From contig OZ076409.1 of assembly GCA_964187785.1 (NCBI GenBank), positions 16,618,001 through 16,682,000 of the forward strand: DNA of 64,000 bases. The letters are read 5' to 3'. The notes beneath the pieces are model-generated. The model did no database searches. It saw nothing but the letters and a program-made list of their open reading frames with translations, and was not told where the DNA came from. This DNA comes from Amphiscolops sp. MND2022. Lineage: Eukaryota. Made by a program: the position numbers and the translations under genes. Numbering within the stretch: position 1 is the first letter of the stretch; each line of letters begins with the position of its first letter. This document shows, piece by piece, positions 2,660 through 48,657 of this stretch.

Positions 2660-2754
2660 TTTTTGGAGTATATCTTGCCTGTTTGAGGTGTGAGTCGCAG
2701 CAATCATAGGTCCAAAACCAGTAACCAAAAACCAACCTGTACTTACTGTTTGAA
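2660..2754 (+). mobile_element. 95-bp non-coding insertion at the SL splice donor (mini-element, variant 1)
   Basis: Flanked by a 14-bp duplication AGGTAAGTATTCCA (2646-2659, 2755-2768); homologous to inserts at 3677 and 13679. Confidence 0.8.
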
Positions 2755-3676: not shown

Positions 3677-3789
3677 TCGGAATATTTCTTGCCTGTTTGA
3701 GGTGTGAATCACACATACTTATCAATAGGGCCCAAAAGCCAGTAACCAAAAACCAGTAACCAATAACCAACCTGTACTTACTGTTTGAA
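3677..3789 (+). mobile_element. 113-bp non-coding insertion at the SL splice donor (mini-element, variant 2)
   Basis: 17-bp duplication AGGTAAGTATTCCAACC (3660-3676, 3790-3806). Confidence 0.8.
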
Positions 3790-6492: not shown

Positions 6493-9024
6493 GAGAAAGT
6501 GAAAGAAATACTAGAAACATCTAAAGTCGCATCCGAAAAATTTGGGAACATTGTGTCTTGTCATGATATCTTTAAAGCGAAAACAAGAGATCAACTAAAA
6601 TACCTTAGTGCTACAAGCAAAAAGATGCTAGTGAAACAAAAAGAAAAAATTCAGATGGATATTGAAAAACTTGAAGAAAATTGTTCTAAGGGAAATTGTT
6701 CTGACCAACAGATCAAACAGAACTTAGAGCACCTGACATGCCTCAAAAATAATCTTCAATTGATCAAAAATGAAGAATCTGAAAATTCATTTCAACAAAT
6801 CAAAAACTTCTTTAGGGAAGCCAATGATGGAAACACAAAAAATATCAAATGCTTAGCGAAAGCCTCAAGCTTAGCTAAGGATATCAAAAAGATTGAAAAA
6901 CAAGATGGATCATTCACAGAAGATCCTGACGAAATTTTAAATGAATTCAAATCTTTTTATGAGAAATTTAGCCAACCAAAATGGAAACCAACAGAAACAT
7001 CCTCGAAATCTCAGGATAAATTCATTGAAAAGTTTTTTAAACAAAAAAGGAAAAGCATTGAAAACATTGAACAATTGTTCAAAGAAACGTTGGAGGACCC
7101 CGACAACGAAATCACAGTATATGAAGTTGAAAAAGCTATCTCTAAACTGAACTCAAACAGTGCTCCTGGATCCGATGGACTTACAAGTCAATTATACCAA
7201 AACCACAAAAACTTTTTTGCCCCGTATCTTTCAAATCTATTTAATAAAATCAATGAAAATGGAGAAGTTCCGGACTCATTTAAACATGCAATCATCAAAG
7301 TAATTCCTAAGAAAAATAATTCACTGAAGGTATCCGAATTTCGGCCAATTAGTCTCATTAATACGGATCAAAAAATTCTTTCTCATGTTCTAGCAGAAAG
7401 ACTCAAACCTATTTTATCAGTATTAATTGGTAATCATCAAAACGCTCATTTACCAAATAGAAATATACATATTGCCATACAAAAAATTCAGCATTACGCC
7501 CATGAAACTACTCGTAGTCAATCACTTATCGCTATTGACTTCAGTAAAGCTTTCGACTGTGTAGAGCGTAGCTTTTTACAAAAACTGATTGAAAAATGTC
7601 CAATCGATAAGTTTACTCAAGAAATGATTTTACTTACGTACAAGGATACTTATGCTTTCATTGGAATGAAAAATGGAATTTCCACAAAATTCAAAATAGA
7701 TAGAGGGGTGAGACAAGGCTGTCCTCTCTCAGCATTGATTTTCAATATTTGTCTTGAACCTCTTCTACAAAGAATTCAAAAATCAAAATACATAAAATCA
7801 AAACAACAAACAAAATGTATTGCCTACGCAGATGATATAACGATCAGCCTCTACAACAAATCTCTTCGGAAGCTATTGATTATTCTGGATCATTTTCACG
7901 AAATAGCAGGCTTAGAAGTTAATTTAGCCAAAACTGAAATCCTTTCGAAAGCGGACAAATTATTTGTATCGGAAAAACTAACAAGAGTTACCACAACAAA
8001 AATTCTTGGAGTTTACATTTCGCTGAATAAAACTCTCAAAAAAGAAACCAAGAACGCAATAACGAATGCTTTTAACTCAACAGAAAAGTTCATACTAAAA
8101 AATAGTTCGTTCCGTGCGAGAGCTAGAAATATTGAGACTTTTATCTACTCGAAATTAATTCATCATCTGAGACACGAAAATTTGTATAAAAAATTTCTTC
8201 GAAAAGTTCAATCGAAAATAATAGATGTTTTCTGGCTGTACAAAAAACACAATGTTAAAAAAAAAATTCTTGAGCTACCAATTGAAGAGGGCGGAGTAAA
8301 CCTCAAGAACTTCTCCAAATACTACCTAACTGCCAAGATTATGAACTTGAAGTTCCTAGCGGTTAACCCAAAGGAGAGAAAATACATACAAGAATTAAAG
8401 AAATCAAAATTTTTTTCAGAATTAGAAAAACACTTCGAAAAACAACACATTGAAATCCTAGAACTGAACCCAGAAGAACTTATAATCCAACATCATTTCA
8501 CTACGCTTAATATAACAAAAGAGACAACTTCGAAAGAAATTTATACTTTTTTGAACAACTCCTCAATAAACGTCCCACCGCCTCTAAAAACTGAAGTTAC
8601 TGCAACAAAACAAAATATAGCACCCGAAATTTTGAACTCAGTTACAAAGAACATCTGGAAAAACAAAAAACTCACTTCGTTTGATAAAAACTATCTTTAC
8701 TGCTTCCTAATGAATTCGTATCTAGATAAACAAGACAAGTGGCTTAAAAATCTTGTTCTCCAACCACTATGTTTCGCATGTGAAGCAGAATTTGAAACAT
8801 GGGACCATTTAATGTTTTCTTGTAAAAATTTGAAAACGTTAACATTGAAGTTGAACGTTTTTTCATGGAAGGAAATATGGCTTGATCGAAGTTGTCTCTC
8901 TCAAAAACTCCTTGTAGCAATAATGCTCTCGTCGTGGACAGAATCAATTGGAGACTACTTAAAATATTTTCTGGAACGTATGAAAGTAATACTAATACCA
9001 GTTGCAAATCTATCTGATAATTGA
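6493..9024 (+). CDS. Partial ORF2 (RT plus C-terminal CCHC zinc finger), N-terminally truncated but uninterrupted
   Basis: APGSDG, RPISLIN, IDFSKAFD, GVRQGCPLS, YADD, CFACEAEFETWDHLMFSC; begins just after the point where the EN domain ends in family B. Confidence 0.92.
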   Translation, partial: EKVKEILETSKVASEKFGNIVSCHDIFKAKTRDQLKYLSATSKKMLVKQKEKIQMDIEKLEENCSKGNCSDQQIKQNLEHLTCLKNNLQLIKNEESENSFQQIKNFFREANDGNTKNIKCLAKASSLAKDIKKIEKQDGSFTEDPDEILNEFKSFYEKFSQPKWKPTETSSKSQDKFIEKFFKQKRKSIENIEQLFKETLEDPDNEITVYEVEKAISKLNSNSAPGSDGLTSQLYQNHKNFFAPYLSNLFNKINENGEVPDSFKHAIIKVIPKKNNSLKVSEFRPISLINTDQKILSHVLAERLKPILSVLIGNHQNAHLPNRNIHIAIQKIQHYAHETTRSQSLIAIDFSKAFDCVERSFLQKLIEKCPIDKFTQEMILLTYKDTYAFIGMKNGISTKFKIDRGVRQGCPLSALIFNICLEPLLQRIQKSKYIKSKQQTKCIAYADDITISLYNKSLRKLLIILDHFHEIAGLEVNLAKTEILSKADKLFVSEKLTRVTTTKILGVYISLNKTLKKETKNAITNAFNSTEKFILKNSSFRARARNIETFIYSKLIHHLRHENLYKKFLRKVQSKIIDVFWLYKKHNVKKKILELPIEEGGVNLKNFSKYYLTAKIMNLKFLAVNPKERKYIQELKKSKFFSELEKHFEKQHIEILELNPEELIIQHHFTTLNITKETTSKEIYTFLNNSSINVPPPLKTEVTATKQNIAPEILNSVTKNIWKNKKLTSFDKNYLYCFLMNSYLDKQDKWLKNLVLQPLCFACEAEFETWDHLMFSCKNLKTLTLKLNVFSWKEIWLDRSCLSQKLLVAIMLSSWTESIGDYLKYFLERMKVILIPVANLSDN

Positions 9025-9115
9025 TGATATGATGCAATTCTGATCTAATGAATTCCAGATTGATCTTTTGTAAAAAAAAGTGTTGATATTATTCATGATT
9101 AATTGAATTTTTGAA
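6493..9115 (+). mobile_element. Family A non-LTR retrotransposon (L1/Tx1-like), 5'-truncated, in SL exon
   Basis: 18-bp TSD AGCCTAATTGTTGTGATA (6475-6492, 9116-9133); carries an RT reading frame lacking the endonuclease. Confidence 0.93.
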
Positions 9116-13678: not shown

Positions 13679-13791
13679 TCGGAATATTTCTTGCCTGTTT
13701 GAGGTGTTAATCACACATACTTATCAATAGGGCCCAAAAGCCAGTAACCAAAAACCAGTAACCAATAACCAACCTGTACTTACTGTTTGAA
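13679..13791 (+). mobile_element. 113-bp mini-element at the SL splice donor (variant 2)
   Basis: 17-bp duplication 13662-13678 / 13792-13808; nearly identical to 3677-3789. Confidence 0.8.
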
Positions 13792-15013: not shown

Positions 15014-15589
15014 TTTTTGTCAGAAATGTGGTTTAACTTCGGTGACAGTTTTGCAAAAGGGGTCAAATTGAAAAGATAGCAAAAAACGGACAACGCCATT
15101 AGAAAGAGCGTCCAAAAAAACCCCCATGCTGAAATTTTCGCCGCCATCACTTGAATTTTCATTGAGTTATGTCATTTTTACTATTTTCACAAAATGTGGT
15201 TTAACTTCGGTGACAGTTTTGCAAAAGGGGTCAAAATGAACAGATAGCAAAAAACGGACAACGGCATTGGAAAGAGGGCCCAAAATTACCCCTAAAACGT
15301 GTTTTTCACACTCCTGAGTCGACTTTTGATAATACATGGAATTTCATTTTTAAGCTTACTAATTTATGCTTTTCAGCATACATTTTCGTAATAGAGTCAA
15401 AATTTTGCTTTCTCACAATTTTTCTGGAATATTTTTGTTTCATCAGATGTCAATAACTTGAAACGTCGTCTTTTCATGAGAATTTCTCCTCAAAACAAGT
15501 TGTTGGCTGGTAATGGTAAGTCCGTACCGCAGATAGGAGTCTCGCGCTCCAAAAATTGACTCTTTGCTTTTAGCCTAATTGTTGTGATA

Positions 15590-17571
15590 CGGCGTTACTC
15601 TGTCAGCCTGCAAACTTCGTTTGCACAGCGCCATCTTGCAAATTTTGCAGCAAAAGTTGCAAAAGTAATGACTAATTTGAACACGAGTGAGCTTGATCAA
15701 CATCATAATGAAAATGTTGAGCAAAATTGTTACAAAAATGCAGTTATTTCCTCGTCGAAATCGAACTCAAATATGGACAAATTACCAATTATTATCAACT
15801 TTGCCTTACCACTGACATCTGAAATGTTCAAAAACAGCAAATTACTGGATTCAATGTTTGTGGAAGCTGTTATGGCCGTCAAAAACCGACTTATCTCCAA
15901 TGAAATTACCATCTTCAAAACTACAATTTTACGCAACAAAGGCAATTTGAAGTGTATTACTGTGATCATTCCTTACAAACTTGAAAATGCAGCTTCCTCT
16001 CTTATTCACGAGGGCATTACTCTTCGCAATCGGAAAATACGGCCTTATTCTGTCAAATATTCCAACCCGAACAACAATGTCTATCCAAAAAGATTACCAA
16101 TATCTTTCCGAAACCTACCACACTTTCTGACGGATGAGGATATTTTGAGTAGCTGTGGTCTTCAAAACTTCAAATTTAGTAGCAAAATTTCTCATCAACA
16201 ACGACGACTTCCTGATAGCAGCCTTTTTTATACAGGAGAGGCAAGAATTACAGTTTTAATTGACAATGAGAATGAGGAAAGTTTACTACAAAACTGGGCC
16301 AATAATGCATATGACAAAATGTTTAGTTCCAGTGGCATTTTTTTCAAATGTTGCTGTATCCCACTCCTCGAATGCTCTTTATGCGTCAATGAGAACCTTC
16401 CCAGTGCTCATCAACAATCAAGATGCCCAAAACAACTATCAGACGAACAGCAAATACAGAAAAACAGTGAATCTCAGAACCAAAAGTTAACAACTGACTA
16501 CGTTATGGAAACTGCAGAAACAGAGCCAATGTCTAATGAACCTGAACTGTCAGATTCAGATGATGCTGAACCAATCTCAAAGGCGCCAAAGCAGACCGAT
16601 GATGGTACTGAAACCGAATGCAATAACAACGTGGCAGAAACTGAACAACCATGCATTAACAACTCAAAGAAAGATACCAATCCTATGCAAAAACCTAAAC
16701 TAATACATCGCTCAACTGAATGGGAATCCTCAACAGACCTTGCCCGAAATCAAGCAGATGACCAACAGTCAACGGCAAAGCATGGATATCATGAATACCC
16801 ATTCTTTTTGGAAAAGAAACAAAACAAAATACTGGCACCCGAAACTATTTTCAACGAAATACCTCCTATAAAAGAACATGTGATCAAAACCCAACAAACT
16901 TCTGGCTACATCAATACACTAGACAAGGAAAAGAAAATTCAAAGGACCTTTTCACTCGTACAACCACTGAAGAAAGAAAAACTCGAAGATCTTTTATCTG
17001 AATCAAACTGGAAACATTCTGACTCTAACACTATTTTAACTTCTCTTTATGAATTTTACTCATTGATCCGGAAGTTTGATCCATTCTATGATGCTACAAA
17101 CCACCAAATTTACACTATTAATCTGCAGAATAAAATTGTACAAGTTTTCACTGCAGTTGAAAACTTATACAATGAAAACAAAAACTAAACTGAAAAATTT
17201 CGGACCTTTTTGACTGGAACTTTAAAGTTCTAAATCTCTACAATACCATCATCAATCAACCCAATTCCCAATTCTTTTCGAGCACTAGTTGTTCGCAACC
17301 TGTATGCAAAAAACGGGTTTTGAGAACAAACTCCTTCCAGGAGCAAACATCTTTTTTTTCATACATTCTCCAAACTACATTATACTAACTTCATACCAAA
17401 AAAAAACATTCCCATTTTGGCGCTTTCTCAAAAATGCCATAACCAAGCATCTTCATCTACATACTTCTGCTTTTTCAACACTTCAGTTACTCATATACTC
17501 ATTTTATACATATACCTTAGACTTCATTACTTTTTACTTGTAAATTCTCAGTTATTAATATAGTCTTCAAA
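15590..17571 (+). mobile_element. Family C ORF1-only non-autonomous retroelement, copy C1, in SL exon
   Basis: 18-bp TSD (15572-15589, 17572-17589); single ORF, no RT; last 25 nt identical to family B. Confidence 0.9.
15668..17188 (+). CDS. ORF1/gag-like protein, 506 aa: RRM-like region, CCHC knuckle, acidic linker, uncharacterised C-terminal domain
   Basis: YPKRLPISFRNLP...YTGEARITV and CSLC...HQQSRC align by eye with family B ORF1; first ATG at 15668 (the track GTG start lies in the TSD). Confidence 0.85.
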   Translation: MTNLNTSELDQHHNENVEQNCYKNAVISSSKSNSNMDKLPIIINFALPLTSEMFKNSKLLDSMFVEAVMAVKNRLISNEITIFKTTILRNKGNLKCITVIIPYKLENAASSLIHEGITLRNRKIRPYSVKYSNPNNNVYPKRLPISFRNLPHFLTDEDILSSCGLQNFKFSSKISHQQRRLPDSSLFYTGEARITVLIDNENEESLLQNWANNAYDKMFSSSGIFFKCCCIPLLECSLCVNENLPSAHQQSRCPKQLSDEQQIQKNSESQNQKLTTDYVMETAETEPMSNEPELSDSDDAEPISKAPKQTDDGTETECNNNVAETEQPCINNSKKDTNPMQKPKLIHRSTEWESSTDLARNQADDQQSTAKHGYHEYPFFLEKKQNKILAPETIFNEIPPIKEHVIKTQQTSGYINTLDKEKKIQRTFSLVQPLKKEKLEDLLSESNWKHSDSNTILTSLYEFYSLIRKFDPFYDATNHQIYTINLQNKIVQVFTAVENLYNENKN

Positions 17572-17799
17572 AGCCTAATTGTTGTGATAAACTTATCAAA
17601 TAGGTAAGTATTCCAACCCTATTGATAAGTTTTATTTGAAAGCTGACTGCGAAAGTGGTCTGCTGCCCAATTTTTTGAACAAGGAACAAGCTAGTCTGCA
17701 CTAACTTAAAAGTTACGCGTATTTTGACCGAGAAAATTTTCGTATCATTGTACGTAATTTTGTTGTTAAGCATATAAAGCCATTGATTTTACAATGATC

Positions 17800-17918
17800 G
17801 GCTACAACCATACCATGTTGAATGCACCGGTTCTCGTCCGATCACCGAAGTTAAACATTATAGGGCCTGGTTAGTACTTGGATGGGAGACCGCTTGGGAA
17901 CATCAGGTGTTGTAGCCT
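17800..17918 (+). rRNA. 5S rRNA variant (several substitutions)
   Basis: CTACAACC, AAACATTATAG, CATCAGG variants. Confidence 0.9.
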
Positions 17919-18494: not shown

Positions 18495-20480
18495 CGGCGT
18501 TACTCTGTCAGCCTGCAAACTTTGTTTGCACAGCGCCATCTTGCAAATTTTGCAGCAAAAGTTGCAAAAGTAATGACTAATTTGAACACGAGTGAGCTTG
18601 ATCAACATCATAATGAAAATGTTGAGCAAAATTGTTACAAAAATGCAGTTATTTCCTTGTCGAAATCGAACTCAAATATGGACAAATTACCAATTATTAT
18701 CAACTTTGCCTTACCACTGACATCTGAAATGTTCAAAAACAGCAAATTACTGGATTCAATGTTTGTGGAAGCTGTTATGGCTGTCAAAAACCGACTTAAC
18801 TCCAATGAAATTACCATCTTCAAAACTACAATTTTACGCAACAAAGGCAATTTGAAGTGTATTACTGTGATCATTCCTTACAAACTTGAAAATGCAGCTT
18901 CCTCTCTTATTCACGAGGGCATTACTCTTCGCAATCGGAAAATACGGCCTTATTCTGTCAATTATTCCAACCCAAACAACAATGTCTATCCAAAAAGATT
19001 ACCAATATCTTTCCGAAACCTACCACACTTTCTGACGGATGAGGATATTTTGAGTAGCTGTGGTCTTCAAAACTTCAAATTTAGTAGCAAAATTTTTCAT
19101 CAACAACGACGACTTCCTGATAGCAGCCTTTTTTATACAGGAGAGGCAAGAATTACAGTTTTAATTGACAATGAGAATGAGGAAAGTTTACTACAAAACT
19201 GGGCCAATAATGCATATGACAAAATGTTTAGTTCCAGTGGCATTTTTTTCAAATGTTGCTGTATCCCACTCCTCGAATGCTCTTTATGCGTCAATGAGAA
19301 CCTTCCCAGTGCTCATCAACAATCAAGATGCCCAAAACAACTATCAGACGAACAGCAAATACAGAAAAACAGTGAATCTCAGAACCAGAAGTTAACAAAT
19401 GACTATGTTATGGAAACTGCAGAAACAGAGCCAATGTCTAATGAACCTGAACTGTCAGATTCAGATGATGCTGAACCAATCTCAAAGGCGCCAAAGCAGA
19501 CCGATGATGGTACTGAAACCGAATGCAATAACAACGTGGCAGAAACTGAACAACCATGCATTAACAACTCAAAGAAAGATACCCATCCTATGCAAAAACC
19601 TGTATTAATGCATCGCTCAACTGAATGGAAATCCTCAACAGACCTTGCCCGAAATCAAGCAGATGACCAACAGTCAACGGCAAAGCATGGATATCATGAA
19701 TACCCATTCTTTTTGGAAAAGAAACAAAACAAAATACTGGCACCCGAAACTATTTTCAACGAAATACCTCCTATAAAAGAACATGTGATCAAAACCCAAC
19801 AAACTTCTGGCTACATCAATACACTAGACAAGGAAAAGAAAATTCAAAGGACCTTTTCACTCGTACAACCACTGAAGAAAAAAAAACTCGAAGATCTTTT
19901 ATCTGAATCAAACTGGAAACATTCTGACTCTAACACTATTTTAACTTCTCTTTATGAATTTTACCAATTAATCCGGAAGTTTGATCCATTCTATGATGCT
20001 ACAAACCACCAAATTCATACTATTAATCTGGAGAATAAAATTGTACAAGTTTTCACCGCAGTTGAAAACTTATACAATGAAAACAAAAACTAAACTGAAA
20101 AATTTCGGACCTTTTTGACTGCAACTTTAAAGTTCTAAATCTCTACAATACCATCATCAATCAACCCAATTCCCAATTCTTTTCGAGCACTAGTTGTTCG
20201 CAACCTGTATGCAAAAAACGGGTTTTGAAAACAAACTCCTTCCAGGAGCAAACATCTTTTTTTCATAAATTCTCCAAACTACATTATACTAACTTCATAC
20301 CTAAAAAAAAAAAAACATTCCCATTTTGGCACTTTCTCAAAAATGCCATAACCAAGCATCTTCATCTACATACTTCAGCTTTTTCAACACTTCAGTTACT
20401 CATATACTCATTTTATACCTATACCTTAGACTTCATTACTTTTTACTTGTAAATTCTCAGTTATTAATATAGTCTTCAAA
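18495..20480 (+). mobile_element. Family C element, copy C2
   Basis: TSD 18477-18494 / 20481-20498. Confidence 0.9.
18573..20093 (+). CDS. Family C ORF1-like protein, 506 aa, intact
   Basis: Near-identical to 15668-17188. Confidence 0.85.
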   Translation: MTNLNTSELDQHHNENVEQNCYKNAVISLSKSNSNMDKLPIIINFALPLTSEMFKNSKLLDSMFVEAVMAVKNRLNSNEITIFKTTILRNKGNLKCITVIIPYKLENAASSLIHEGITLRNRKIRPYSVNYSNPNNNVYPKRLPISFRNLPHFLTDEDILSSCGLQNFKFSSKIFHQQRRLPDSSLFYTGEARITVLIDNENEESLLQNWANNAYDKMFSSSGIFFKCCCIPLLECSLCVNENLPSAHQQSRCPKQLSDEQQIQKNSESQNQKLTNDYVMETAETEPMSNEPELSDSDDAEPISKAPKQTDDGTETECNNNVAETEQPCINNSKKDTHPMQKPVLMHRSTEWKSSTDLARNQADDQQSTAKHGYHEYPFFLEKKQNKILAPETIFNEIPPIKEHVIKTQQTSGYINTLDKEKKIQRTFSLVQPLKKKKLEDLLSESNWKHSDSNTILTSLYEFYQLIRKFDPFYDATNHQIHTINLENKIVQVFTAVENLYNENKN

Positions 20481-20827: not shown

Positions 20828-21790
20828 TTTTTGTCAGAAATGTGGTTTAACTTCGGTGACAGTTTTGCAAAAGGGGTCAAATTGAAAAGATAGCAAAAAA
20901 CGGACAACGCCATTAGAAAGAGCGTCCAAAAAAACCCCCATGCTGAAATTTTCGCCGCCATCACTTGAATTTTCATTGAGTTATGTCATTTTTACTATTT
21001 TCACAAAATGTGGTTTAACTTCGGTGACAGTTTTGCAAAAGGGGTCAAAATGAACAGATAGCAAAAAACGGACAACGGCATTGGAAAGAGGGCCCAAAAT
21101 TACCCCTAAAACGTGTTTTTCACACTCCTGAGTCGACTTTTGATAATACATGTAATTTCATTTTTAAGCTTACTAATTTATGCTTTTCAGCATACATTTT
21201 CGTAATAGAGTCAAAATTTTGCTTTCTCACAATTTTTCTGGAATATTTTTGTTTCATCAGATGTCAATAACTTGAAACGTCGTCTTTTCATGAGAATTTC
21301 TCCTCAAAACAAGTTGTTGGCTGGTAATGGTAAGTCCGTACCGCAGATAGGAGTCTCGCGCTCCAAAAATTGACTCTTTGCTTTTAGCCTAATTGTTGTG
21401 ATTTTACCCGAGGCGAACCGCTGCCAAATTTTAAAATCACCTCTCTCTGAGCTGTTTCAGCTCAAAAAGCACAAATTAATTTCGATTTGTCTTTCTCTGC
21501 TTTTCTGAACCGACTTTCTTTTACTTTACTTTTCCGAAATTTAACCAAATTTCGTTATTGAAATGAAACAAAAAGCGTTCAAAAAAACGCCAAATTCGCA
21601 AGAAAAATTCCCAAAATACTCTCCAACTGTTACTTTCGAAGGCAAAGCCTCCATCAGCGAGAATAACAATAGGGCCAACCCGACCAATTCTACTTCAATA
21701 AAAAAAAACAAAATGCGAAAAACTTTGCATCAGAATTCCTAAAACACAACGAAACTTCCAAAGCTTCATACAACAACAAATTACCATTAA

Positions 21791-23580
21791 ATGACTCTAC
21801 TTCTCAAGTCTTCAACGCAACTGGTCCCACAAGCCCTGTTTACGGCCACGGAACCAGTATTACTGCAGAAAAAAATTACATGCATTATCTCAACGATGAA
21901 ATTCCGATAACGTATGCTGGGTCCCAAAACTCGGAGGAAAATCCTAATTATTCAACACCCACTTGCAGTAGAGATGAAAATGAAGTATCAGCAGGAGCAT
22001 CTTAACAAGCCCAAGCCTCCAACATACCAACAATGCAAACCCAGTGTCTACAAAACCCAAAATTCCCAGATCAATGCAACATACCACATCCGAAAAGTCA
22101 AACTGAGAATTATATGTCGACAAGGCAAAATCAGCTATCTTATATTTCTTCTCTGCCGGACTTCACCAGTCTGTATCAACAGGAAGAGCAATGTTCTGGT
22201 GACCGCTACGTCTCTCCCATTGAGAGAAAGCGCCACTACAGCCATGATGAAATGGCTGCTGCAAATTCAGAATCGTTAAACAATAACTTCTCAAATCTTG
22301 GCGTCCCAGCGCAACAAGGACAAACAAGAGCAAACAATGCTTACAATGACTCAAGCCTCAACAATGCCACTCAGCGTACGCTGGAAGAAGCGGTAAACAA
22401 CGCAATAGAAGTCACAAATCCTTCTGCCGAAGCAATGTATACCGACACAATAAGAGGACAAACAAACCCAAAACCGACTACTAACAACATGGCCTCATAT
22501 TCTCAGGTAACATGCCTCAGAAATCCAACCGCTACTGTTACTAACAAAATACACAAACTCAGAATTGTTCCACCTCTGAGAAAAGAGCATTTTACAAATG
22601 CCTCAACAATGCAACAGGAAATAGATAAAGCGTACCAGGAGATCCTTGTGGCGTTTTCACCCAACATAAGGCACCTAATAACAATCTCGAGAACTATCGT
22701 CAAGGTGTCCGAGAAAAACTATCAAGTACTGCAAGTGATAGCACCAAAAGAAGCCGAAAATGATATTAATAACATGAAGCTATCCGGTCTTACCATAATG
22801 GGACGGACTGTGTTTCCCTCCTCAGAAGATTTTTGGCAAGTCCGACAATCCTTTTACCCCAAACCCGCTACAATAAGAAGTAACAATGTTCCAGTAATTT
22901 GCACCGACGAAGAGTTGTTCAAAACTCTTGAAATTCCCGCCTTCCTGGAATACGGTGCCATAGTGAGAGAAACCAAACATACAGGTATCGGTCCAGTCCA
23001 TACAGGCAAAGTTGCGATCAAAATAAAAATCAACTCTGCAGAGGAAGAAACAGAACTCCGCAAATGGTCATTCAACAAGGCCTTTGCTAACCCAGCAGAA
23101 TGGATGGGAATAGACATACCTACCAGCATCCCGATGCTCCATACTTGCAAAAGATGCAAAGAGGAAAAACGGCCACAATTCCGGGGCCATGAGGAAGAGT
23201 GGTGCCGAATTCGCAGGTCCACCCCACACGAACCCCAAAATGAGAACCAACCTTCGCTCAATAGGAACCCAGAACTGCCTACAGCTCCTTCTGAGCTGAC
23301 TAAACAAACCTCAGCCTCGACAACAGTCAACGAAGAAACGATGGAAAATGAGAACCACAACCATCAAGAAGACACGGTGATCCACAACCAGGATGAGGAA
23401 TGGCAAACGGTGGGCAAACAACAAGGACAAAAGCGTCCCCAGAAGGTTCCTTCAGAAACATCCTCGAGCTCAAGGAACAGCAGCCCGACCAAAGCTCCAA
23501 AACCGAAACAACCAGCACTACAAAACAACAGTTGCCCCAATGTACCAGACGATCAGCAAAAACGGTATGATGGCTCTTGA
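21791..23580 (+). pseudogene. Family B ORF1 (gag-like, RRM-like plus CCHC); 5' part has a frameshift and a stop relative to B2, open from 22033
   Basis: YPKPATIRSNNVP, HTGKVAIKI, CKRCKEEKRPQFRGHEEEWC; A-run difference near 21870 and TAA near 22003 versus B2. Confidence 0.8.
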
Positions 23581-26500
23581 TATTCTATGTGTGAACATCA
23601 GAGGCCTTGCTAATCCAGCAAAGCTTCTCGAGATCTGTGAAAAAAGGCAGATCCTAGGCAAAAATAATGAAACATGCATTGTAATACAAGAAACTAAGAT
23701 AATTAAAATGAAGGAGGAACATGAAAAAATACTAAAAAAATACAAATTAAAAAGTGAGGAAGTACCTGCTATAGGAGGGTCCGGGGGGCTACTAACAATC
23801 ATACCAGAATTTTTGCAATACCAAGTTCTTCTGAAAGGTACAAGTTGCCTTGCACTCAAGATTAGCAAAAACAACCAAGAAACGATTCTGATCAATACCT
23901 ATATCAATCCAAAAGACTTCAGAGCTGAAAACTTCTGCGCATGTTTAGAAGAATTAGGCTTAGAACCCACCCATAGAATTCTTATAGCAGGTGATTTCAA
24001 TGCAATAGACAACGAAGATATTGGAAAAAACGATGCCTTGAATAACTCAATCAAAAATAATGATATCAGAATCTTACGCTATAAACGCATAATACCTTAT
24101 ATGAACTCACTGCTTTTGAAGGACCAAGTTAAAGAACAAAATACCGTTCAACCGACTCACTACGATAAGAGAACAAAGAAAAATAGCAGAATTGACTATA
24201 TTTTTAGCAACTGCATAAGTGACGAGCAAAAAATCGAATTGTTCAACATTACAAAAACTGATCACAAATGTCTTTTTCTACGAACCCACGAAGAAAGGTT
24301 AGACTTGAAGCAATCGCAATGGAAACTTAACGATACGGTACTTGATGACAGATTCCGAATCAACGAAATTTTAAAAAATGCAATCCCAAAACTTAAGAAC
24401 AAGCTGTCACTTGCAGAAACCTACGATAATTTTAAAGCCAACGTAAGAGATGACCTCCGACAGCTTTGTATTGAAAAACGAAACATTGAAAAAGCCTACG
24501 AAAGGCAACTTATACGTGACATTAAAGACCTAGAACATGAACGGTTTGTATGCAACAACAAACCAGAAGAAATAAATCGAATCCAAAAAGAGATTGACAG
24601 AAAAAATGATGAAATCGATGCTCTGATCAACAACCAAAATAGAATGCAATTAAATAAAATCAAAAATTTCTACAATGAAGTGAACGAAGGTAACCCAAAA
24701 CAGGTTAAACAACTTGTTTCCGCTCTTAGACCGAGTACAAGAATTAACAAACTGAAAAAAGACAATGGCGAAACAATCAACTCTCAAAATGATATTGTAG
24801 AAGAGATAACTACTTACTACCAAAATCTTTATGAGAGTCATGCTCCTCCTAGTCCAAACAACTATGAGCCCACATTACAACAAACAACTTACCTACAAAA
24901 ATATTTTAAAAGAATTGAGAACAAGCTCTCTACCTATGATAATACGAACATAAATGAAGACGAGATCACAGAATTTGAAGTAGAACAGGCGATTTTGAAA
25001 CTGAATAACAAGAGCGCTCCCGGACCCGACGGTCTCACATCTAATCTATACCAAACTTATAAAAACTTCTTTATTCCCCTATTAACCGACCTATTCAATG
25101 ACATTATACGGAAAAAACAAGTTCCTCCTTCATTTAATCTAGCAATCATCAAACTCATTCCAAAGAAATACGCCTCTGAAAAAGTCTCCGACCTCAGACC
25201 AATAAGTCTAATCAATTCAGACCAAAAAATCTTGTCACATGTCCTGACTAAAAGAATCAAACCTCTCTTCGATCATGTCATAGGAAATCATCAATATGCT
25301 CATCTCACTGACAGAAATATTCACACAGCCCTAACTAAAATCCGCCAATACTCAACAAGCTTGAGAAGCAAAGAAGCCCTGTGTGCTCTAGACTTCTCCA
25401 AAGCGTTTGATTGTGTTGACAGGGGTTTTCTCATGGCTATTCTTAAATATCTTCCAATTCCAGAAACAACAATCAATCTCATTGAAGCTCTCTATCAAAA
25501 TACGATCTCAATCATTGACGTCAACTCCGAGTTTTCTAAACCAATTAAAATTACAAGAGGAGTCCGTCAAGGATGTCCACTATCAGCAATCCTTTTTATC
25601 CTAGTGATAGAGCCCCTGCTGGACAAAATCCAAAGATCAAGAAAAATCAAATCTACTAACCATCAAAAATCGATCGCTTTTGCCGATGACATCACAGTAT
25701 CCATTAAAACGAAGTCAATAAACAAACTTATCAAGTTTCTTGATGATTTTGAAATGATAGCAGGGCTTGCAATAAACTATGATAAATCAGAAATGCTGAC
25801 CAAAAACCACAACATCTTCTTCAGAAACCCGGAAAAGACATTGAAAACGGTCAATCGAGTCAAAGTTCTTGGAGTTTTTATCACAACTAAATACGGAATA
25901 GACTGTAACACAAAAAACAAAATAGAAACAATTTTAAGTCAGGCAACAAAATTCACCTCAAAAAATATGAGCTTCCGAGCACGGGCAATCAATTTAGAGA
26001 CCTTCATTCTTTCCAAAATAACCTATCAATTGAGACACTTTACCAAAAACAAAACCTATATGAAAAAACTCAATGCTAAAATGGTTGATGGCTTTTGGAA
26101 TCATAAAAAACATAACGTCAATCAAGAAATTGCGCATTTGGAACGCAAAGAAGGTGGTATAGGCCTAAAAAAACATCAATCGAAGAGTACTAGTCGCAAA
26201 ACTCATGAATCTAAAAGTATCCCTTCTGGGTCCCAACAACCATGATAATTACAATGACTTCAAAGGCTCAAAATGGTTCAAACAAATTGAGAGAGATTTG
26301 AAGAACGAGAATATCGATTTTGTAGAAATCACAAACGAAATAATGAGAATTCAATATCTTTCCCAAACTATTGAAATCAACAACAATACAAAATCAAAAG
26401 ACATCCATCAAATATTACGAAACCCAACAATTAGTAATGCATGCCTTCCTCGCATAACAAAAACTGCTACGAAACAAAATATTTCCCCCGATCGCATTTT

Positions 26501-26882
26501 GTGCGTTCTGAAGTCACTCTGGAATAACACGAAATTGAAGTCATTCGACAAAAACTACATTTATTGCTTCTTAATGGATGCTTACCTTGACAAGGAAGAA
26601 AAATGGGAAAAACTTCTAACTCCTCATCCACTTTGTTTCCAATGTGGTGCGGAATTCGAAACATACTCTCACCTGATGTTTGATTGCTCTCTAACCCAAG
26701 ACCTAAAAAAGAGCCTAAAATACCAAAACTGGCAACATATATGGACTGACCGAACCGGGAAATCCCAAAAACTGTTAGTTGCAATGCTTCTATCCTCTTG
26801 GACCGAGGAAGAAGGACCTTATTTAAGTTTTCTCAGATCTAAACTAACTAACCACAACCCTAAGCAGGTACCAATAAACTAA
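23567..26882 (+). pseudogene. Family B ORF2 (APE endonuclease, RT, CCHC), ~1104 aa consensus; one +1 frameshift in an A run near 26170
   Basis: EN motifs VNIRGL, IQET, AGDFN, SRIDYIF, TDH; RT motifs APGPDG, LDFSKAFD, GVRQGCPLS, FADD; CFQCGAEFETYSHLMFDC. Confidence 0.92.
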
Positions 26883-27254
26883 AACACAACCTTCCTTAAG
26901 TTCACACATAGATAGATGTATTCATTTGTCTATTGTTTTTGTTATTACTATGTACAATTTTTTTTATATATGAGTTTTTTTTTTGTTTTAGTTTTGTAAT
27001 ACTCAGTTATTAATATAGTCTTCAAAAGCCTAATTGTTGTGATAAACTTATTAAATAGGTAAGTATTCCAACCCTATTGATAAGTTTTATTTGAAAGCAG
27101 ACTGCGAAAGTGGTCTGCTGCCCAATTTTTTGAACAAGGAACAAGCTAGTCTGCACTAACTTAAAAGTTACGCGTATTTTGACCGAGAAAATTTTCGTAT
27201 CATTGTACGTAATTTTGTTGTTAAGCATATAAAGCTATTGATTTTACAATGATC

Positions 27255-27949: not shown

Positions 27950-29338
27950 GCAAAATTTCTCATCAACAACGACGACTGCCTGATAGCAGCCTTTTTTATA
28001 CAGGAGAGGCAAGAATTACAGTTTTAATTGACAATGAGAATGAGGAAAGTTTACTACAAAACTGGGCCAATAATGCATATGACAAAATGTTTAGTTCCAG
28101 TGGCATTTTTTTCAAATGTTGCTGTATCCCACTCCTCGAATGCTCTTTATGCGTCAATGAGAACCTTCCCAGTGCTCATCAACAATCAAGATGCCCAAAA
28201 CAACTATCAGACGAACAGCAAATACAGAAAAACAGTGAATCTCAGAACCAAAAGTTAACAACTGACTACGTTATGGAAACTGCAGAAACAGAGCCAATGT
28301 CTAATGAACCTGAACTGTCAGATTCAGATGATGCTGAACCAATCTCAAAGGCGCCAAAGCAGACCGATGATGGTACTGAAACCGAATGCAATAACAACGT
28401 GGCAGAAACTGAACAACCATGCATTAACAACTCAAAGAAAGATACCAATCCTATGCAAAAACCTAAACTAATACATCGCTCAACTGAATGGGAATCCTCA
28501 ACAGACCTTGCCCGAAATCAAGCAGATGACCAACAGTCAACGGCAAAGCATGGATATCATGAATACCCATTCTTTTTGGAAAAGAAACAAAACAAAATAC
28601 TGGCACCCGAAACTATTTTCAACGAAATACCTCCTATAAAAGAACATGTGATCAAAACTCAACAAACTTCTGGATACATCAATACACAAGACAAGGAAAA
28701 GAAAATTCAAAGGACATTTTCACTAGTACAACCACTGAAGAAAGAAAAACTCGAAGATCTTTTATCTGAATCAAACTGGAAACATTCTGACTCTAACACT
28801 ATTTTAACTTCTCTTTATGAATTTTACTCATTGATCCGGAAGTTTGATCCATTCTATGATGCTACAAACCACCAAATTTACACTATTAATCTGCAGAATA
28901 AAATTGTACAAGTTTTCACTGCAGTTGAAAACTTATACAATGAAAACAAAAACTAAACTGAAAAATTTCGGACCTTTTTGACTGGAACTTTAAAGTTCTA
29001 AATCTCTACAATACCATCATCAATCAACCCAATTCCCAATTCTTTTCGAGCACTAGTTGTTCGCAACCTGTTTGCAAAAAACGGGTTTTGAGAACAAACT
29101 CCTTCCAGGAGCAAACATCTTTTTTTCATACATTCTCCAAACTACATTATACTAACTTCATACCAAAAAAAAACATTCCCATTTTGGCGCTTTCTCAAAA
29201 ATGCCATAACCAAGCATCTTCATCTACATACTTCTGCTTTTTCAACACTTCAGTTACTCATACACTCATTTTATACATATACCTTAGACTTCATTACTTT
29301 TTACTTGTAAATTCTCAGTTATTAATATAGTCTTCAAA
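27950..29338 (+). mobile_element. Family C element, copy C3, 5'-truncated by ~590 bp
   Basis: TSD 27932-27949 / 29339-29356; starts mid-ORF at GCAAAATTTCTCATC; frame open to 28956. Confidence 0.9.
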
Positions 29339-30261: not shown

Positions 30262-32244
30262 CGGCGTTACTCTGTCAGCCTGCAAACTTTGTTTGCACAG
30301 CGCCATCTTCCAAATTTTGCAGCAAAAGTTGCAAAAGTAATGACTAATTTGAACACGAGTGAGCTTGATCAACATCATAATGAAAATGTTGAGCAAAATT
30401 GTTACAAAAATGCAGTTATTTCCTTGTCGAAATCGAATTCAAATATGGACAAATTACCAATTATTATCAACTTTGCCTTACCACTGACATCTGAAATGTT
30501 CAAAAACAGCAAATTACTGGATTCAATGTTTGTGGAAGCTGTTATGGCCGTCAAAAACCGACTTAACTCCAATGAAATTACCATCTTCAAAACTACAATT
30601 TTACGCAACAAAGGCAATTTGAAGTGTATTACTGTGATCATTCCTTACAAACTTGAAAATGCAGCTTCCTCTCTTATTCACGAGGGCATTACTCTTCGCA
30701 ATCGGAAAATACGGCCTTATTCTGTCAATTATTCCAACCCAAACAACAATGTCTATCCAAAAAGATTACCAATATCTTTCCGAAACCTACCACACTTTCT
30801 GACGGATGAGGATATTTTGAGTAGCTGTGGTCTTCAAAACTTCAAATTTAGTAGCAAAATTTTTCATCAACAACGACGACTTCCTGATAGCAGCCTTTTT
30901 TATACAGGAGAGGCAAGAATTACAGTTTTAATTGACAATGAGAATGAGGAAAGTTTACTACAAAACTGGGCCAATAATGCATATGACAAAATGTTTAGTT
31001 CCAGTGGCATTTTTTTCAAATGTTGCTGTATCCCACTCCTCGAATGCTCTTTATGCGTCAATGAGAACCTTCCCAGTGCTCATCAACAATCAAGATGCCC
31101 AAAACAACTATCAGACGAACAGCAAATACAGAAAAACAGTGAATCTCAGAACCAGACGTTAACAAATGACTATGTTATGGAAACTGCAGAAACAGAGCCA
31201 ATGTCTAATGAACCTGAACTGTCAGATTCAGATGATGCTGAACCAATCTCAAAGGCGCCAAAGCAGACCGATGATGGTACTGAAACCGAATGCAATAACA
31301 ACGTGGCAGAAACTGAACAACCATGCATTAACAACTCAAAGAAAGATACCCATCCTATGCAAAAACCAGTACTAATGCATCGCTCAACTGAATGGAAATC
31401 CTCAACAGACCTTGCCCGAAATCAAGCAGATGACCAACAGTCAACGGCAAAGCATGGATATCATGAATACCCATTCTTTTTGGAAAAGAAACAAAACAAA
31501 ATACTGGCACCCGAAACTATTTTCAACGAAATACCTCCTATAAAAGAACATGTGATCAAAACCCAACAAACTTCTGGCTACATCAATACACTAGACAAGG
31601 AAAAGAAAATTCAAAGGACCTTTTCACTCGTACAACCACTGAAGAAAGAAAAACTCGAAGATCTTTTATCTGAATCAAACTGGAAACATTCTGACTCTAA
31701 CACTATTTTAACTTCTCTTTATGAATTTTACCAATTAATCCGGAAGTTTGATCCATTCTATGATGCTACAAACCACCAAATTTACACTATTAATCTGCAG
31801 AATAAAATTGTACAAGTTTTCACTGCAGTTGAAAACTTATACAATGAAAACAAAAACTAAACTGAAAAATTTCGGACCTTTTTGACTGCAACTTTAAAGT
31901 TCTAAATCTCTACAATACCATCATCAATCAACCCAATTCCCAATTCTTTTCGAGCACTAGTTGTTCGCAACCTGTATGCAAAAAACGGGTTTTGAAAACA
32001 AACTCGTTCCAGGAGCAAACATCTTTTTTTTCATAAATTCTCCAAACTACATTATACTAACTTCATACCTAAAAAAAAACATTCCCATTTTGGCGCTTTC
32101 TCAAAAATGCCATAACCAAGCATCTTCATCTACATACTTCAGCCTTTTCAACACTTCAGTTACTCATATACTCATTTTATACCTATACCTTAGACTTCAT
32201 TACTTTTTACTTGTAAATTCTCAGTTATTAATATAGTCTTCAAA
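30262..32244 (+). mobile_element. Family C element, copy C4
   Basis: TSD 30244-30261 / 32245-32262. Confidence 0.9.
30340..31860 (+). CDS. Family C ORF1-like protein, 506 aa, intact
   Basis: Near-identical to 15668-17188. Confidence 0.85.
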   Translation: MTNLNTSELDQHHNENVEQNCYKNAVISLSKSNSNMDKLPIIINFALPLTSEMFKNSKLLDSMFVEAVMAVKNRLNSNEITIFKTTILRNKGNLKCITVIIPYKLENAASSLIHEGITLRNRKIRPYSVNYSNPNNNVYPKRLPISFRNLPHFLTDEDILSSCGLQNFKFSSKIFHQQRRLPDSSLFYTGEARITVLIDNENEESLLQNWANNAYDKMFSSSGIFFKCCCIPLLECSLCVNENLPSAHQQSRCPKQLSDEQQIQKNSESQNQTLTNDYVMETAETEPMSNEPELSDSDDAEPISKAPKQTDDGTETECNNNVAETEQPCINNSKKDTHPMQKPVLMHRSTEWKSSTDLARNQADDQQSTAKHGYHEYPFFLEKKQNKILAPETIFNEIPPIKEHVIKTQQTSGYINTLDKEKKIQRTFSLVQPLKKEKLEDLLSESNWKHSDSNTILTSLYEFYQLIRKFDPFYDATNHQIYTINLQNKIVQVFTAVENLYNENKN

Positions 32245-32591: not shown

Positions 32592-33553
32592 TTTTTGTCA
32601 GAAATGTGGTTTAACTTCGGTGACAGTTTTGCAAAAGGGGTCAAATTGAAAAGATAGCAAAAAACGGACAACGCCATTAGAAAGAGCGTCCAAAAAAACC
32701 CCCATGCTGAAATTTTTGCCGCCATCACTTGAATTTTCATTGAGTTATGTCATTTTTACTATTTTCACAAAATGTGGTTTAACTTCGGTGACAGTTTTGC
32801 AAAAGGGGTCAAAATGAACAGATAGCAAAAAACGGACAACGGCATTGGAAAGAGGGCCCAAAATTACCCCTAAAACGTGTTTTTCACACTCCTGAGTCGA
32901 CTTTTGATAATACATGGAATTTCATTTTTAAGCTTACTAATTTATGCTTTTCAGCATACATTTTCGTAATAGAGTCAAAATTTTGCTTTCTCACAATTTT
33001 TCTGGAATATTTTTGTTTCATCAGATGTCAATAACTTGAAACGTCGTCTTTTCATGAGAATTTCTCCTCAAAACAAGTTGTTGGCTGGTAATGGTAAGTC
33101 CGTACCGCAGATAGGAGTCTCGCGCTCCAAAAATTGACTCTTTGATTTTAGCCTAATTGTTGTGATTTTACCCGAGGCGAACCGCTGCCAAATTTTAAAA
33201 TCACCTCTCTCTGAGCTGTTTCAGCTCAAAAAGCACAAATTAATTTCGATTTGTCTTTCTCTGCTTTTCTGAACCGACTTTCTTTTACTTTACTTTTCCG
33301 AAATTTAACCAAATTTCGTTATTGAAATGAAACAAAAAGCGTTCAAAAAAACGCCAAATTCGCAAGAAAAATTCCCAAAATACTCTCCAACTGTTACTTT
33401 CGAAGGCAAAGCCTCCATCAGCGAGAATAACAATAGGGCCAACCCGACCAATTCTACTTCAATAAAAAAAACAAAATGCGAAAAACTTTGCATCAGAATT
33501 CCTAAAACACAACGAAACTTCCAAAGCTTCATACAACAACAAATTACCATTAA

Positions 33554-35344
33554 ATGACTCTACTTCTCAAGTCTTCAACGCAACTGGTCCCACAAGCCCT
33601 GTTTACGGCCACGGAACCAGTATTACTGCAGAAAAAAAATTACATGCATTATCTCAACGATGAAATTCCGATAACGTATGCTGGGTCCCAAAACTCGGAG
33701 GAAAATCCTAAATATTCAACACCCACTTGCAGTAGAGATGAAAATGAAGTATCAGCAGGAGCATCTCAACAAGCCCAAGCCTCCAACATACCAACAATGC
33801 AAACCCAGTGTCTACAAAACCCAAAATTCCCAGATCAATGCAACATACCACATCCGAAAAGTCAAACTGAGAATTATATGTCGACAAGGCAAAATCAGCT
33901 ATCTTATATTTCTTCTCTGCCGGACTTCACCAGTCTGTATCAACAGGAAGAGCAATGTTCTGGTGACCGCTACGTCTCTCCCATTGAGAGAAAGCGCCAC
34001 TACAGCCATGATGAAATGGCTGCTGCAAATTCAGAATCGTTAAACAATAACTTCTCAAATCTTGGCGTCCCAGCGCAACAAGGACAAACAAGAGCAAACA
34101 ATGCTTACAATGACTCAAGCCTCAACAATGCCACTCAGCGTACGCTGGAAGAAGCGGTAAACAACGCAATAGAAGTCACAAATCCTTCTGCCGAAGCAAT
34201 GTATACCGACACAATAAGAGGACAAACAAACCCAAAACCGACTACTAACAACATGGCCTCATATTCTCAGGTAACATGCCTCAGAAATCCAACCGCTACT
34301 GTTACTAACAAAATACACAAACTCAGAATTGTTCCACCTCTGAGAAAAGAGCATTTTACAAATGCCTCAACAATGCAACAGGAAATAGATAAAGCGTACC
34401 AGGAGATCCTTGTGGCGTTTTCACCCAACATAAGGCACCTAATAACAATCTCGAGAACTATCGTCAAGGTGTCCGAGAAAAACTATCAAGTACTGCAAGT
34501 GATAGCACCAAAAGAAGCCGAAAATGATATTAATAACATGAAGCTATCCGGTCTTACCATAATGGGACGGACTGTGTTTCCCTCCTCAGAAGATTTTTGG
34601 CAAGTCCGACAATCCTTTTACCCCAAACCCGCTACAATAAGAAGTAACAATGTTCCAGTAATTTGCACCGACGAAGAGTTGTTCAAAACTCTTGAAATTC
34701 CCGCCTTCCTGGAATACGGTGCCATAGTGAGAGAAACCAAACATACAGGTATCGGTCCAGTCCATACAGGCAAAGTTGCGATCAAAATAAAAATCAACTC
34801 TGCAGAGGAATAAAAAGAACTCCGCAAATGGTCATTCAACAAGGCCTTTGCTAACCCAGCAGAATGGATGGGAATAGACATACCTACCAGCATCCCGATG
34901 CTCCATACTTGCAAAAGATGCAAAGAGGAAAAACGGCCACAATTCCGGGGCCATGAGGAAGAGTGGTGCCGAATTCGCAGGTCCACCCCACACGAACCCC
35001 AAAATGAGAACCAACCTTCGCTCAATAGGAACCCAGAACTGCCTACAGCTCCTTCTGAGCTGACTAAACAAACCTCAGCCTCGACAACAGTCAACGAAGA
35101 AACGATGGAAAATGAGAACCACAACCATCAAGAAGACACGGTGATCCACAACCAGGATGAGGAATGGCAAACGGTGGGCAAACAACAAGGACAAAAGCGT
35201 CCCCAGAAGGTTCCTTCAGAAACATCCTCGAGCTCAAGGAACAGCAGCCCGACCAAAGCTCCAAAACCGAAACAACCAGCACTACAAAACAACAGTTGCC
35301 CCAATGTACCAGACGATCAGCAAAAACGGTATGATGGCTCTTGA
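33554..35344 (+). pseudogene. Family B ORF1 (~596 codons) with a premature TAA at 34811-34813
   Basis: GAA in B1 is TAA here; the frame continues to 35344. Confidence 0.8.
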
Positions 35345-38300: not shown

Positions 38301-38646
38301 GAAGTCATTCGACAAAAACTACATTTATTGCTTCTTAATGGATGCTTACCTTGACAAGGAAGAAAAATGGGAAAAACTTCTAACTCCTCATCCACTTTGT
38401 TTCCAATGTGGTGCGGAATTCGAAACATACTCTCACCTGATGTTTGATTGCTCTCTAACCCAAGACCTAAAAAAGAGCCTAAAATACCAAAACTGGGAAC
38501 ATATATGGACTGACCGAACCGGGAAATCCCAAAAACTGTTAGTTGCAATGCTTCTATCCTCTTGGACCGAGGAAGAAGGACCTTATTTAAGTTTTCTCAG
38601 ATCTAAACTAACTAACCACAACCCTAAGCAGGTACCAATAAACTAA
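35331..38646 (+). pseudogene. Family B ORF2 with a frameshift near 35500 and a nonsense codon at 36934-36936
   Basis: Fragments in the ORF track reconstruct the same EN-RT-CCHC protein as B1. Confidence 0.92.
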
Positions 38647-39017
38647 AACACAACCTTCCTTAAGTTCACACATAGATAGATGTATTCATTTGTCTATTGT
38701 TTTTGTTATTACTATGTACAATTTTTTTTATATATGAGTTTTTTTTTGTTTTAGTTTTGTAATACTCAGTTATTAATATAGTCTTCAAAAGCCTAATTGT
38801 TGTGATAAACTTATTAAATAGGTAAGTATTCCAACCCTATTGATAAGTTTTATTTGAAAGCAGACTGCGAAAGTGGTCTGCTGCCCAATTTTTTGAACAA
38901 GGAACAAGCTAGTCTGCACTAACTTAAAAGTTACGCGTATTTTGACCGAGAAAATTTTCGTATCATTGTACGTAATTTTGTTGTTAAGCATATAAAGCTA
39001 TTGATTTTACAATGATC

Positions 39018-48070: not shown

Positions 48071-48657
48071 CTGCGTGTGTCAGCGATTATTTGCTAACTC
48101 TACTCTCACTGCTGCGGCAGAGAAGACGAAAATTACCTGAACAATGCCTTTATTGACAGCAGAATTCATCATTCCTTACACAAAAGAAGAAATTACCAGC
48201 CCAAACATAAAGCAAGCTGTTTACAAAGAATTCCTTTGCAAGCTTTTACATGCTTTATCGCCTACTCATATTGACAGCGTGACATGCATTAAATCGTACG
48301 TGTCCAAACATGCGCCAGCGCATGAGCATGAAAAGAAGCTTGAATGCATCAAAATTATTGCTCCAAACTCGATAGAAAACGACTTCAAAAACCTACTTCT
48401 CAAAGGAATTCCTTACAAAAACCGGATAATTTATGCATTCCAAAACAGTGATGTTTATTCTAACTCCTACCCAAAGCAATTCACTTTGAAATTCCGCAAT
48501 TTACCACACTTTTTAGAAGATGGAGAGATTGTGGAGGCTTGTAATCTGCAAGAGTACAAAATTTCCAAATTACGCCACCAAAGAGTAAGAATTTCTGACG
48601 ACATCGAAGCCTTTACTGGAATCTGTTATGCTGAAATAGAGATTGCCAATCAATGCC
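48071..48657 (+). mobile_element. Family D element, copy D2, cut by the assembly gap (ORF starts 48144)
   Basis: Same 5' junction as D1 after AGCCTAATTGTTGTGATA (48053-48070); a few substitutions versus D1. Confidence 0.88.

Follow-up and report, generated by a model that had tools for sequence, protein, structure and literature searches.

An ORF1-only LINE lineage that shares its 5S rRNA array target and short 3' ends with several autonomous LINEs

The window analysed here, 64,000 nucleotides of Amphiscolops sp. MND2022 (contig OZ076409.1, positions 16,618,001 to 16,682,000 of the forward strand), covers the right end of an array in which 905-bp units, each with one 5S rRNA gene, are repeated in tandem, and 23 5S genes were identified in it with Rfam. 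Every long insertion in the window lies at a single spacer position, approximately 220 nt upstream of a 5S gene, and is bracketed by a target duplication of 17-18 bp. Four families were found at this site in the window, A (a 5'-truncated ORF2), B (n = 2), C (n = 6) and D (n = 2). The same site and duplication are used by all families, and the insertion site is common to C and at least seven autonomous L1/Tx1-like families. A 200-N assembly gap (window 48658-48857) lies inside the second D copy; the array ends in this gap and is thus incomplete here. Part of a DEG/ENaC (ASC) channel gene lies outside the array (window 61729-62409, minus strand). The setting of the family C element at 15590..17571 is as follows.

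6493..9115, + strand: family A, autonomous, 5'-truncated, at the same site, with an unrelated tail
15572..15589, + strand: 5' target duplication, 18 bp, with a boundary uncertain by one A
17572..17589, + strand: 3' copy of the target duplication, 18 bp, starting with AGCC
17800..17918, + strand: 5S rRNA gene in the unit that hosts the element, 228 nt past the start of the target duplication
21403..27026, + strand: family B LINE with ORF1 and an APE-RT ORF2, both ORFs interrupted
33167..38789, + strand: second family B copy, ORFs interrupted
42620..44241, + strand: family D, an ORF1-only sister family (387 aa) with an ancestral-type tail
48071..48657, + strand: second D copy, broken by the assembly gap

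The 5S units diverge by 6-8% between the arrays on chromosome C1 and those on C12 and C13, and carry a 168-bp internal repeat in differing numbers, while the target region hardly varies across all three. Insertions in the C1 array are dense at both ends (G000:C1:16230000-16370000; window 15572-48657), and the inner parts sampled consist mostly of empty units. A second fixed target lies 30 nt downstream of the first and is used by non-coding mini-elements of 95-113 nt (window 2660-2754, 3677-3789 and 13679-13791) and by P, a 4.8-kb two-ORF LINE (G000:C1:16612184-16617025), which have their last 8 nt in common. Both targets overlap a stretch with an Sm-site-like run (window 761-852, minus strand) that is present in every unit, starts with what we take to be a U1-like 10-mer, and may be a small RNA gene. 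That such a gene is the true target was considered and set aside, given that Rfam returned only a weak SmY match (E 9.1) and that conservation does not peak above the adjacent spacer.

The features of the C element and the other C copies in the window are listed below.

15590..17571, + strand: family C element, full-length, ORF1-only, with a B-type tail, 1982 nt
15590..15640, + strand: C 5' head, closest to the head of K, an autonomous family (z 6.6 relative to shuffled sequences, compared with 0.1 for B)
15668..17188, + strand: ORF1-like frame, 506 aa
15788..16357, + strand: two RRM-like domains, about aa 41-131 and 141-230 (AlphaFold2, Foldseek, VIA-align)
16373..16426, + strand: knuckle-like motif C-x2-C-x8-H-x4-C (CCHC-like), identified from alignments, with a putative function
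16793..17158, + strand: folded C-terminal domain, aa 376-497, of the ORF1-only lineage only
17329..17408, + strand: 3' UTR block common to C and D (66/80 nt)
17372-17388, + strand: 17-nt motif inside this block, present in C, D, F, I and H and in 0/8 autonomous families
17547..17571, + strand: 25-nt tail identical to B, the last 18 nt of which contain five positions that separate B-type from K-type C
18495..20480, + strand: C copy, full-length
27950..29338, + strand: C copy, 5'-truncated, with a full duplication
30262..32244, + strand: C copy, full-length
39713..41697, + strand: C copy, full-length
45165..47147, + strand: C copy, full-length, with one mismatch in the tail

All five full-length window copies of C carry the 506-aa ORF (starts at 15668, 18573, 30340, 39793 and 45243), and the original prediction of an element of approximately 1.98 kb lacking endonuclease and RT was borne out. 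No Pfam family matched the C ORF; the ORF2 of B matched RVT_1 and, weakly, an endonuclease. An RNA-gene head was not found in C with Rfam, and the 5S genes of the window all lie outside C. The six-to-two excess of C over B holds in the window but is a local ratio only.

The host assembly (1.07 Gb) was searched, and approximately 600 kb of 5S arrays on chromosomes C1, C12 and C13 were sampled; family letters beyond A-D are labels of this analysis. The arrays were picked for matches to C, so the sample favours C. Altogether 86 closed insertions comprised 96 units: 69 ORF1-only or decayed ORF1-only units (C 44, D 10, F 8, I 3 and four singletons), 25 two-ORF LINEs or 3' parts of them (E 8, B 4, M 4, A 3, N 3, K 1, G 1, P 1) and 2 stubs. 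ORF2 frames are unbroken in B (on C13), K, M, N, E and A. No ORF2 follows any of the 44 C units in these arrays, and no longer C was present among at least 43 genome-wide DNA matches (best 40 of 95 candidates scored). Thirteen further loci carry more distant C-like ORFs, of which one is a two-ORF LINE (Q8, C8:44.50 Mb, 30%); ORFs at these loci that match over the length of C have no ORF2 behind them. A longer C with an ORF2 of its own, named in the original prediction as evidence that would speak against it, was thus searched for in the arrays and among the best genome candidates and was not found. The ORF is open in 34 of the 42 full-length copies. The 44 copies fall into 28 clusters at six or fewer differences, and array duplication may explain part of the copy number.

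An AlphaFold2 run on a 10-row alignment of the C ORF protein predicted two alpha/beta domains and, past a long disordered linker, a third domain at aa 376-497, all three confidently. With the RRM part only as query, tandem-RRM proteins ranked first in Foldseek (E 6e-5), and VIA-align returned RRM-like folds at a middling Z of approximately 7. The knuckle-like motif also occurs in autonomous ORF1s and was lost in H and J. The C-terminal domain, approximately 120 aa, could be aligned across C, D, F, H, I and J. When these same ORF1-only families were used to build a profile of the domain, none of the autonomous ORF1 or ORF2 proteins tested scored above 8 bits; nothing above chance was found in Pfam or PDB sequences, and the Atlas gave no usable match. 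A search with the domain among longer proteins yielded four proteins of 439-534 aa, lengths like those of the families in this genome. One speculative role for the extra domain would be that of an adaptor to the ORF2 of a helper.

The ORF1-only lineage consists of C, D, F, H, I and J, with identities of 20-61%. The ORFs of C and B are distant homologues at the protein level (22%, E 7e-18), so that the original claim of no similarity between the two elements stands for nucleotides outside the last 34 nt and fails for the ORF1 protein. In its core the C ORF is 23% identical to B and K and 21% to M. In a tree of ORF1 cores, B, M, K, N, G, A and E form one clade (97/99) and C falls outside it, which argues that C is not a deletion of its helper; the original statement that C is not a simple internal deletion of B is upheld on the same ground. 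This small tree did not separate the ORF1-only group from Q8, an off-array LINE (34% of bootstrap trees; AU p 0.43). In a quick-method, midpoint-rooted tree that included 44 outside proteins, the domain carriers and two short fragments formed one group (SH-aLRT 90) beside Q8 (96). dN/dS was 0.26-0.54 between C and an older C subfamily, 0.26 for the D-F core and 0.12 for H-J2, with dS saturated for deeper pairs; pN/pS within C was 0.41-0.51. The ORF1-only lineage is old and its ORF is under purifying selection, and C does supply its own RRM-type ORF1, as had been proposed.

A profile search recovered 111 relatives in other assemblies. The clusters P0002, P0003 and P0004, which carry the C-terminal domain, lie on contigs of 1.0-1.7 kb, and P0020, which does not carry it, lies on contigs of 4.4-5.1 kb; scans of metagenomes found no DNA context for the outside relatives. 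With contig size as the sole basis, P0002-P0004 would fit ORF1-only units in related organisms.

The last 25 nt of C are identical to the end of B (27002-27026) in five of the six window copies, and the match extends to 32 of 34 nt at the 3' end; outside this stretch no nucleotide similarity between C and B was detected, the next best match being 17 nt long (E 1.6). An exact 25-mer match at a given position has a chance probability of approximately 3e-14. The 25-mer was found 21 times in the assembly, at 14 C and 7 B ends, and a reversed control 0 times. The reported identity is therefore real in the window, but it marks one of two tail types in C: among 44 copies inspected on three chromosomes, 14 have a B-type and 30 a K-like tail. 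The two types are separated by five fixed differences in the last 18 nt (at one of these positions a single K-type copy has a third base), whereas their bodies are only 1.5% apart (binomial P approximately 5e-6). The switch point falls within 7 nt that B and both C types have in common. The K-type end matches the LINE K in its last 15 nt and in 23 of 25 nt overall, and is not exact. The K-type pattern was found in the assembly at 28 C ends, two K LINEs and one stub. K-type copies occur in C1, C12 and C13 unit types and are most frequent on C1, on which a full K copy was not found; by this pattern the assembly has only two K LINEs. A 64-nt stub at C1:16266713 is in its 5' half nearer to H and I ends than to K.

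Families H and I have C-like 3' UTRs. Some of their copies are nearer to the K-type end in the last bases and others are intermediate; K-type C and one H copy have 2 mismatches in their last 25 positions. These similarities suggest that the K-type end is ancestral and that the B-type end was captured. The older C subfamily (81-92% identical) likewise ends in the last 15 nt of B, which indicates that exchange was not one event and makes its direction less certain. This subfamily comprises four tandem, internally deleted copies (G000:C1:15315500-15324900). Local conversion within the window was ruled out as the source of the tail match, with B-type C copies present on C12, C13 and C938. Six tails folded no better than shuffled sequences (z 0.0-1.6), so that a tail stem-loop was rejected, and duplication length was discarded as a helper fingerprint because it varied from 16 to 19 among truncated copies. 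The original prediction that C depends on B through the exact tail is not supported as stated, since 30 of 44 C copies lack that tail, the K-like tail appears to be the older, and F, I and one D subfamily have no exact match among seven autonomous families.

Tail borrowing was also observed in D. The 30 D 3' ends include 21 with the last 42 nt of the LINE M, exact or with one change (5 of them tandem duplicates on C610), and 2 that consist of target sequence followed by the last 26 nt of the LINE N. Another 6, the window type, are related to F and other ORF1-only families, and 1 end was cut by the edge of its locus. D bodies are approximately 1.1% apart across tail types, and the N-ended pair is split between two unit variants, one copy being on C12 and one on C13. 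Tail capture was thus seen three times: C from B, D from M, and D from N. In F (8 copies), I (3) and window-type D (6), no tail match beyond 8-10 terminal bases was found with the seven autonomous families compared. All same-site families have a loose terminal consensus in common, and autonomous families match one another at up to 19 of 25 positions.

The 5' heads were assessed in 49 comparisons with 500 shuffles each. The heads of C and I resemble K (z approximately 6.5), that of J1 resembles E (z 5.3), and those of J3 and X15 resemble B, M and N (z 5-8.5); D and F heads showed no resemblance above z 2.7. A K-family LINE with an M-like 5' part (G000:C12:56388732-56394572) indicates that autonomous families exchange heads too. 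Copies of I (L038:1759-3758) and H (L033:2001-3790) have C-like UTRs, with heads 94% alike between the two families, and their ORF cores are only 37-42% identical to C; by sequence comparison this reads as ORF replacement between conserved UTRs. A 3.07-kb tandem repeat elsewhere (L096, G000:C5:70416600-70422300) carries a chimeric 497-aa ORF in which part of an N ORF1 is fused to an ORF1-only 3' part with the extra domain, followed by a P-like 3' piece. An off-array tandem with a 7-bp duplication (L040:1-3699, G000:C7:66.668 Mb) joins the 3' part of G to a copy of I, which lies directly behind G, has a tail that does not match G and is not separated from it by array spacer.

C bears the marks of LINE-type insertion, namely a target duplication, 5' truncation and separate insertions. 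Two 5'-truncated C copies with full duplications were present in the array sample. The upstream flank of C copies is of the local variant (C1 versus C12/C13), which indicates separate insertions. Head-to-tail stacks at the regenerated site without 5S between the units were found as M+C, D+M+C, D+C, C+C+C and J+F. Each of the eight off-array copies examined (four H, one I, two N and one further relative) has AGCC directly after its 3' end, and 3 of 4 off-array H copies start with array target sequence. From these junctions we infer transcripts with target bases at either end, of which those at the 3' end may anneal to the nick. The putative helpers B, K and M combine an APE endonuclease and RT with sequence-specific insertion in a multicopy RNA-gene repeat. 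Among solved structures, human L1 ORF2p was closest to the ORF2 of the same-site family N (E 2e-57; R2, 2e-24), and the named matches to helper RT were generic RT-domain proteins at approximately 30% identity. In the published work, as far as its accessible parts go, template switching is described as giving chimeras with a LINE 3' end (PMC4476161), and target annealing of read-through 3' bases is proposed for R1Bm and SART1Bm (PMC7265360).

Our preferred reading, held with modest confidence, is that C belongs to an old, separate lineage of non-autonomous, ORF1-only LINEs, is trans-mobilised by several same-site LINEs and recaptures its ends from these helpers. From shared target and ends alone, we infer that a partner ORF2 mobilises C in trans. 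A C transcript from the array would carry a few target bases at both ends and would be coated by C's own ORF1 protein; the ORF2 of a same-site LINE would nick the target, and the read-through AGCC would pair with the nick and prime reverse transcription. The last 20-40 nt would serve as the handle for ORF2 and would be renewed from whichever helper is present, either because the RT changes template once some tens of bases have been copied or through recombination at a microhomology. B would be the latest tail donor for one C subfamily and is probably the preferred helper of these B-type copies, and K-like (or E-like) helpers would serve the other; helper use may be biased toward the tail donor. 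Weighing against this reading are the F, I and window-type D tails that have no exact partner among the seven families, the inexact match of K-type C to K and its abundance on the chromosome that lacks a full K copy, the I copy behind a G with an unlike tail, the tails that fold no better than shuffled sequences, the small tree that leaves the ORF1-only group together with Q8, and the share of C copies that array duplication may account for.

The original prediction in its strict form, in which C is a dedicated parasite of B by way of the 25-nt tail, draws on the B tail of all six window copies (one with a mismatch) and of 14 C ends genome-wide, and on the B-type tail of both 5'-truncated copies. 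We regard it as highly improbable, given that most copies lack this tail, that the K-type looks ancestral and that the C head is K-like and not B-like. Recent internal deletion of an autonomous C-like LINE that is absent from the assembly or from the scored candidates is hardly credible: only the best candidates were scored (40 of 95; 85 of 616) and the arrays are incompletely assembled, but at least six ORF1-only families, saturated dS and a private domain speak against a recent origin, as do domain-bearing relatives elsewhere on contigs of 1.4-1.7 kb, which is ORF1-only unit size. Were C copied in cis, mainly as the 3' unit of read-through transcripts from an upstream autonomous LINE, its tail would be irrelevant. 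Head-to-tail units without intervening 5S are consistent with such copying, but most C copies are single and full-length (42/44) with a head of their own, and the off-array G and I pair lacks array spacer between its units, which makes this explanation very unlikely.

A serious possibility, if still a minority one, is that C is trans-mobilised while the exact tail is neutral. A loose AT-rich end in AAA together with read-through target would then suffice, and ends would be overwritten by gene conversion from an identical downstream unit or by chance template switches. The terminal consensus common to all same-site families, the several ORF1-only families without an exact partner and the switch point within the 7-nt common stretch agree with this, and C bodies are mosaic between subfamilies, which indicates that conversion is active. 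The three captures, however, are each found on more than one chromosome or unit type, and the M tail on 21 of 30 D ends goes beyond one neutral accident, although drift in a few source copies could suffice. An extension of the preferred reading, to which we give only tentative and rather low credence, would make C an ancient satellite LINE lineage that arose by one loss of ORF2, gained a new domain that recruits helper ORF2 or RNPs, and switched among at least five helper families by way of 20-50-nt heads and tails while keeping its own protein, much as a host-switching hyperparasite like phage satellites.

ORF1-present non-autonomous LINEs, tail exchange by SINEs and 5S-targeting Tx1-group LINEs are already known from the literature covered here. 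HAL1, as far as it is described in PMC5753468 and PMC5786205, is a non-autonomous LINE derived from L1 that encodes only ORF1p and arose several times in mammals. C resembles it in encoding an ORF1-type protein without endonuclease or RT and, going by these descriptions, differs in being site-specific, in lacking a poly(A) end, in its private C-terminal domain and in an ORF that lies outside the clade of its likely helpers. Unlike an internal-deletion derivative, C has 5' and 3' parts that do not belong to one partner, its head being K-like and its tail at times B-type. HeT-A, according to the available part of PMC5537684, is a long-lived Gag/ORF1-only element under negative selection that shares its target and head-to-tail arrays with TART and TAHRE and whose RT donor is unproven. 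C is likewise ORF1-only and selected, and shares its target and stacks with RT-bearing partners; HeT-A as described there belongs to the Jockey clade, occupies chromosome ends and has a promoter in a long 3' UTR, whereas C lies in internal 5S arrays on three chromosomes. Recent ORF2-defective telomeric elements are described in the accessible text of PMC13534243 as sharing whole UTRs with their progenitors, unlike the case here, where 20-50-nt ends only are shared, with several unrelated helpers. The part of PMC5786205 available lists Ag-Sponge alongside HeT-A and HAL1 among the non-autonomous LINEs that have ORF1; unlike C, it is CR1-derived. SINEs, as outlined in PMC5786205 and PMC11481361, exchange tails and pair one body with several LINE partners. 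C is like them in taking its 3' tail from a partner LINE; SINEs by that account are non-coding with a Pol III head, whereas C encodes 506 aa and has no tRNA-, 5S- or 7SL-type head by Rfam. Mutsu and other target-specific Tx1-group LINEs crowd a 5S array as several two-ORF families at fixed sites, according to the sections available of PMC5340908 and PMC4494074, and further site-specific Tx1-group LINEs are described in PMC3747384, likewise available in part. Mutsu by this description has a poly(A) end and an insertion site approximately 20 nt within the 5S gene, whereas the families here insert approximately 220 nt upstream. The term 'nonautonomous' is absent from the accessible text of PMC5340908. 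In the literature covered, which extends to listings and abstracts with most subscription papers and Repbase outside it, we found no ORF1-only lineage that is site-specific, carries a private domain and exchanges ends with several helpers; this negative carries little weight, and similar elements may be listed in the supplements of PMC5786205 and PMC4494074.

On the preferred reading, C is not the private parasite of B but a protein-coding passenger lineage of a same-site LINE community. Such a lineage bears on how a LINE RT, which prefers its own RNA, comes to accept a foreign template, and on why ORF1 is kept by some non-autonomous LINEs, a matter argued so far only for HeT-A. Naturally matched pairs exist in the array, in that a single body occurs with two or three tails differing in 18-60 nt; unbroken helper ORF2s and one fixed target are also present, so that tail-helper specificity and the roles of the private ORF1 and the extra domain are directly testable. 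If tails select the helper, few recognition signals as short as this 25-42-nt end have, to our knowledge, been proposed for site-specific LINEs, and the finding would bear on the use of such enzymes to insert cargo at harmless repeat sites.
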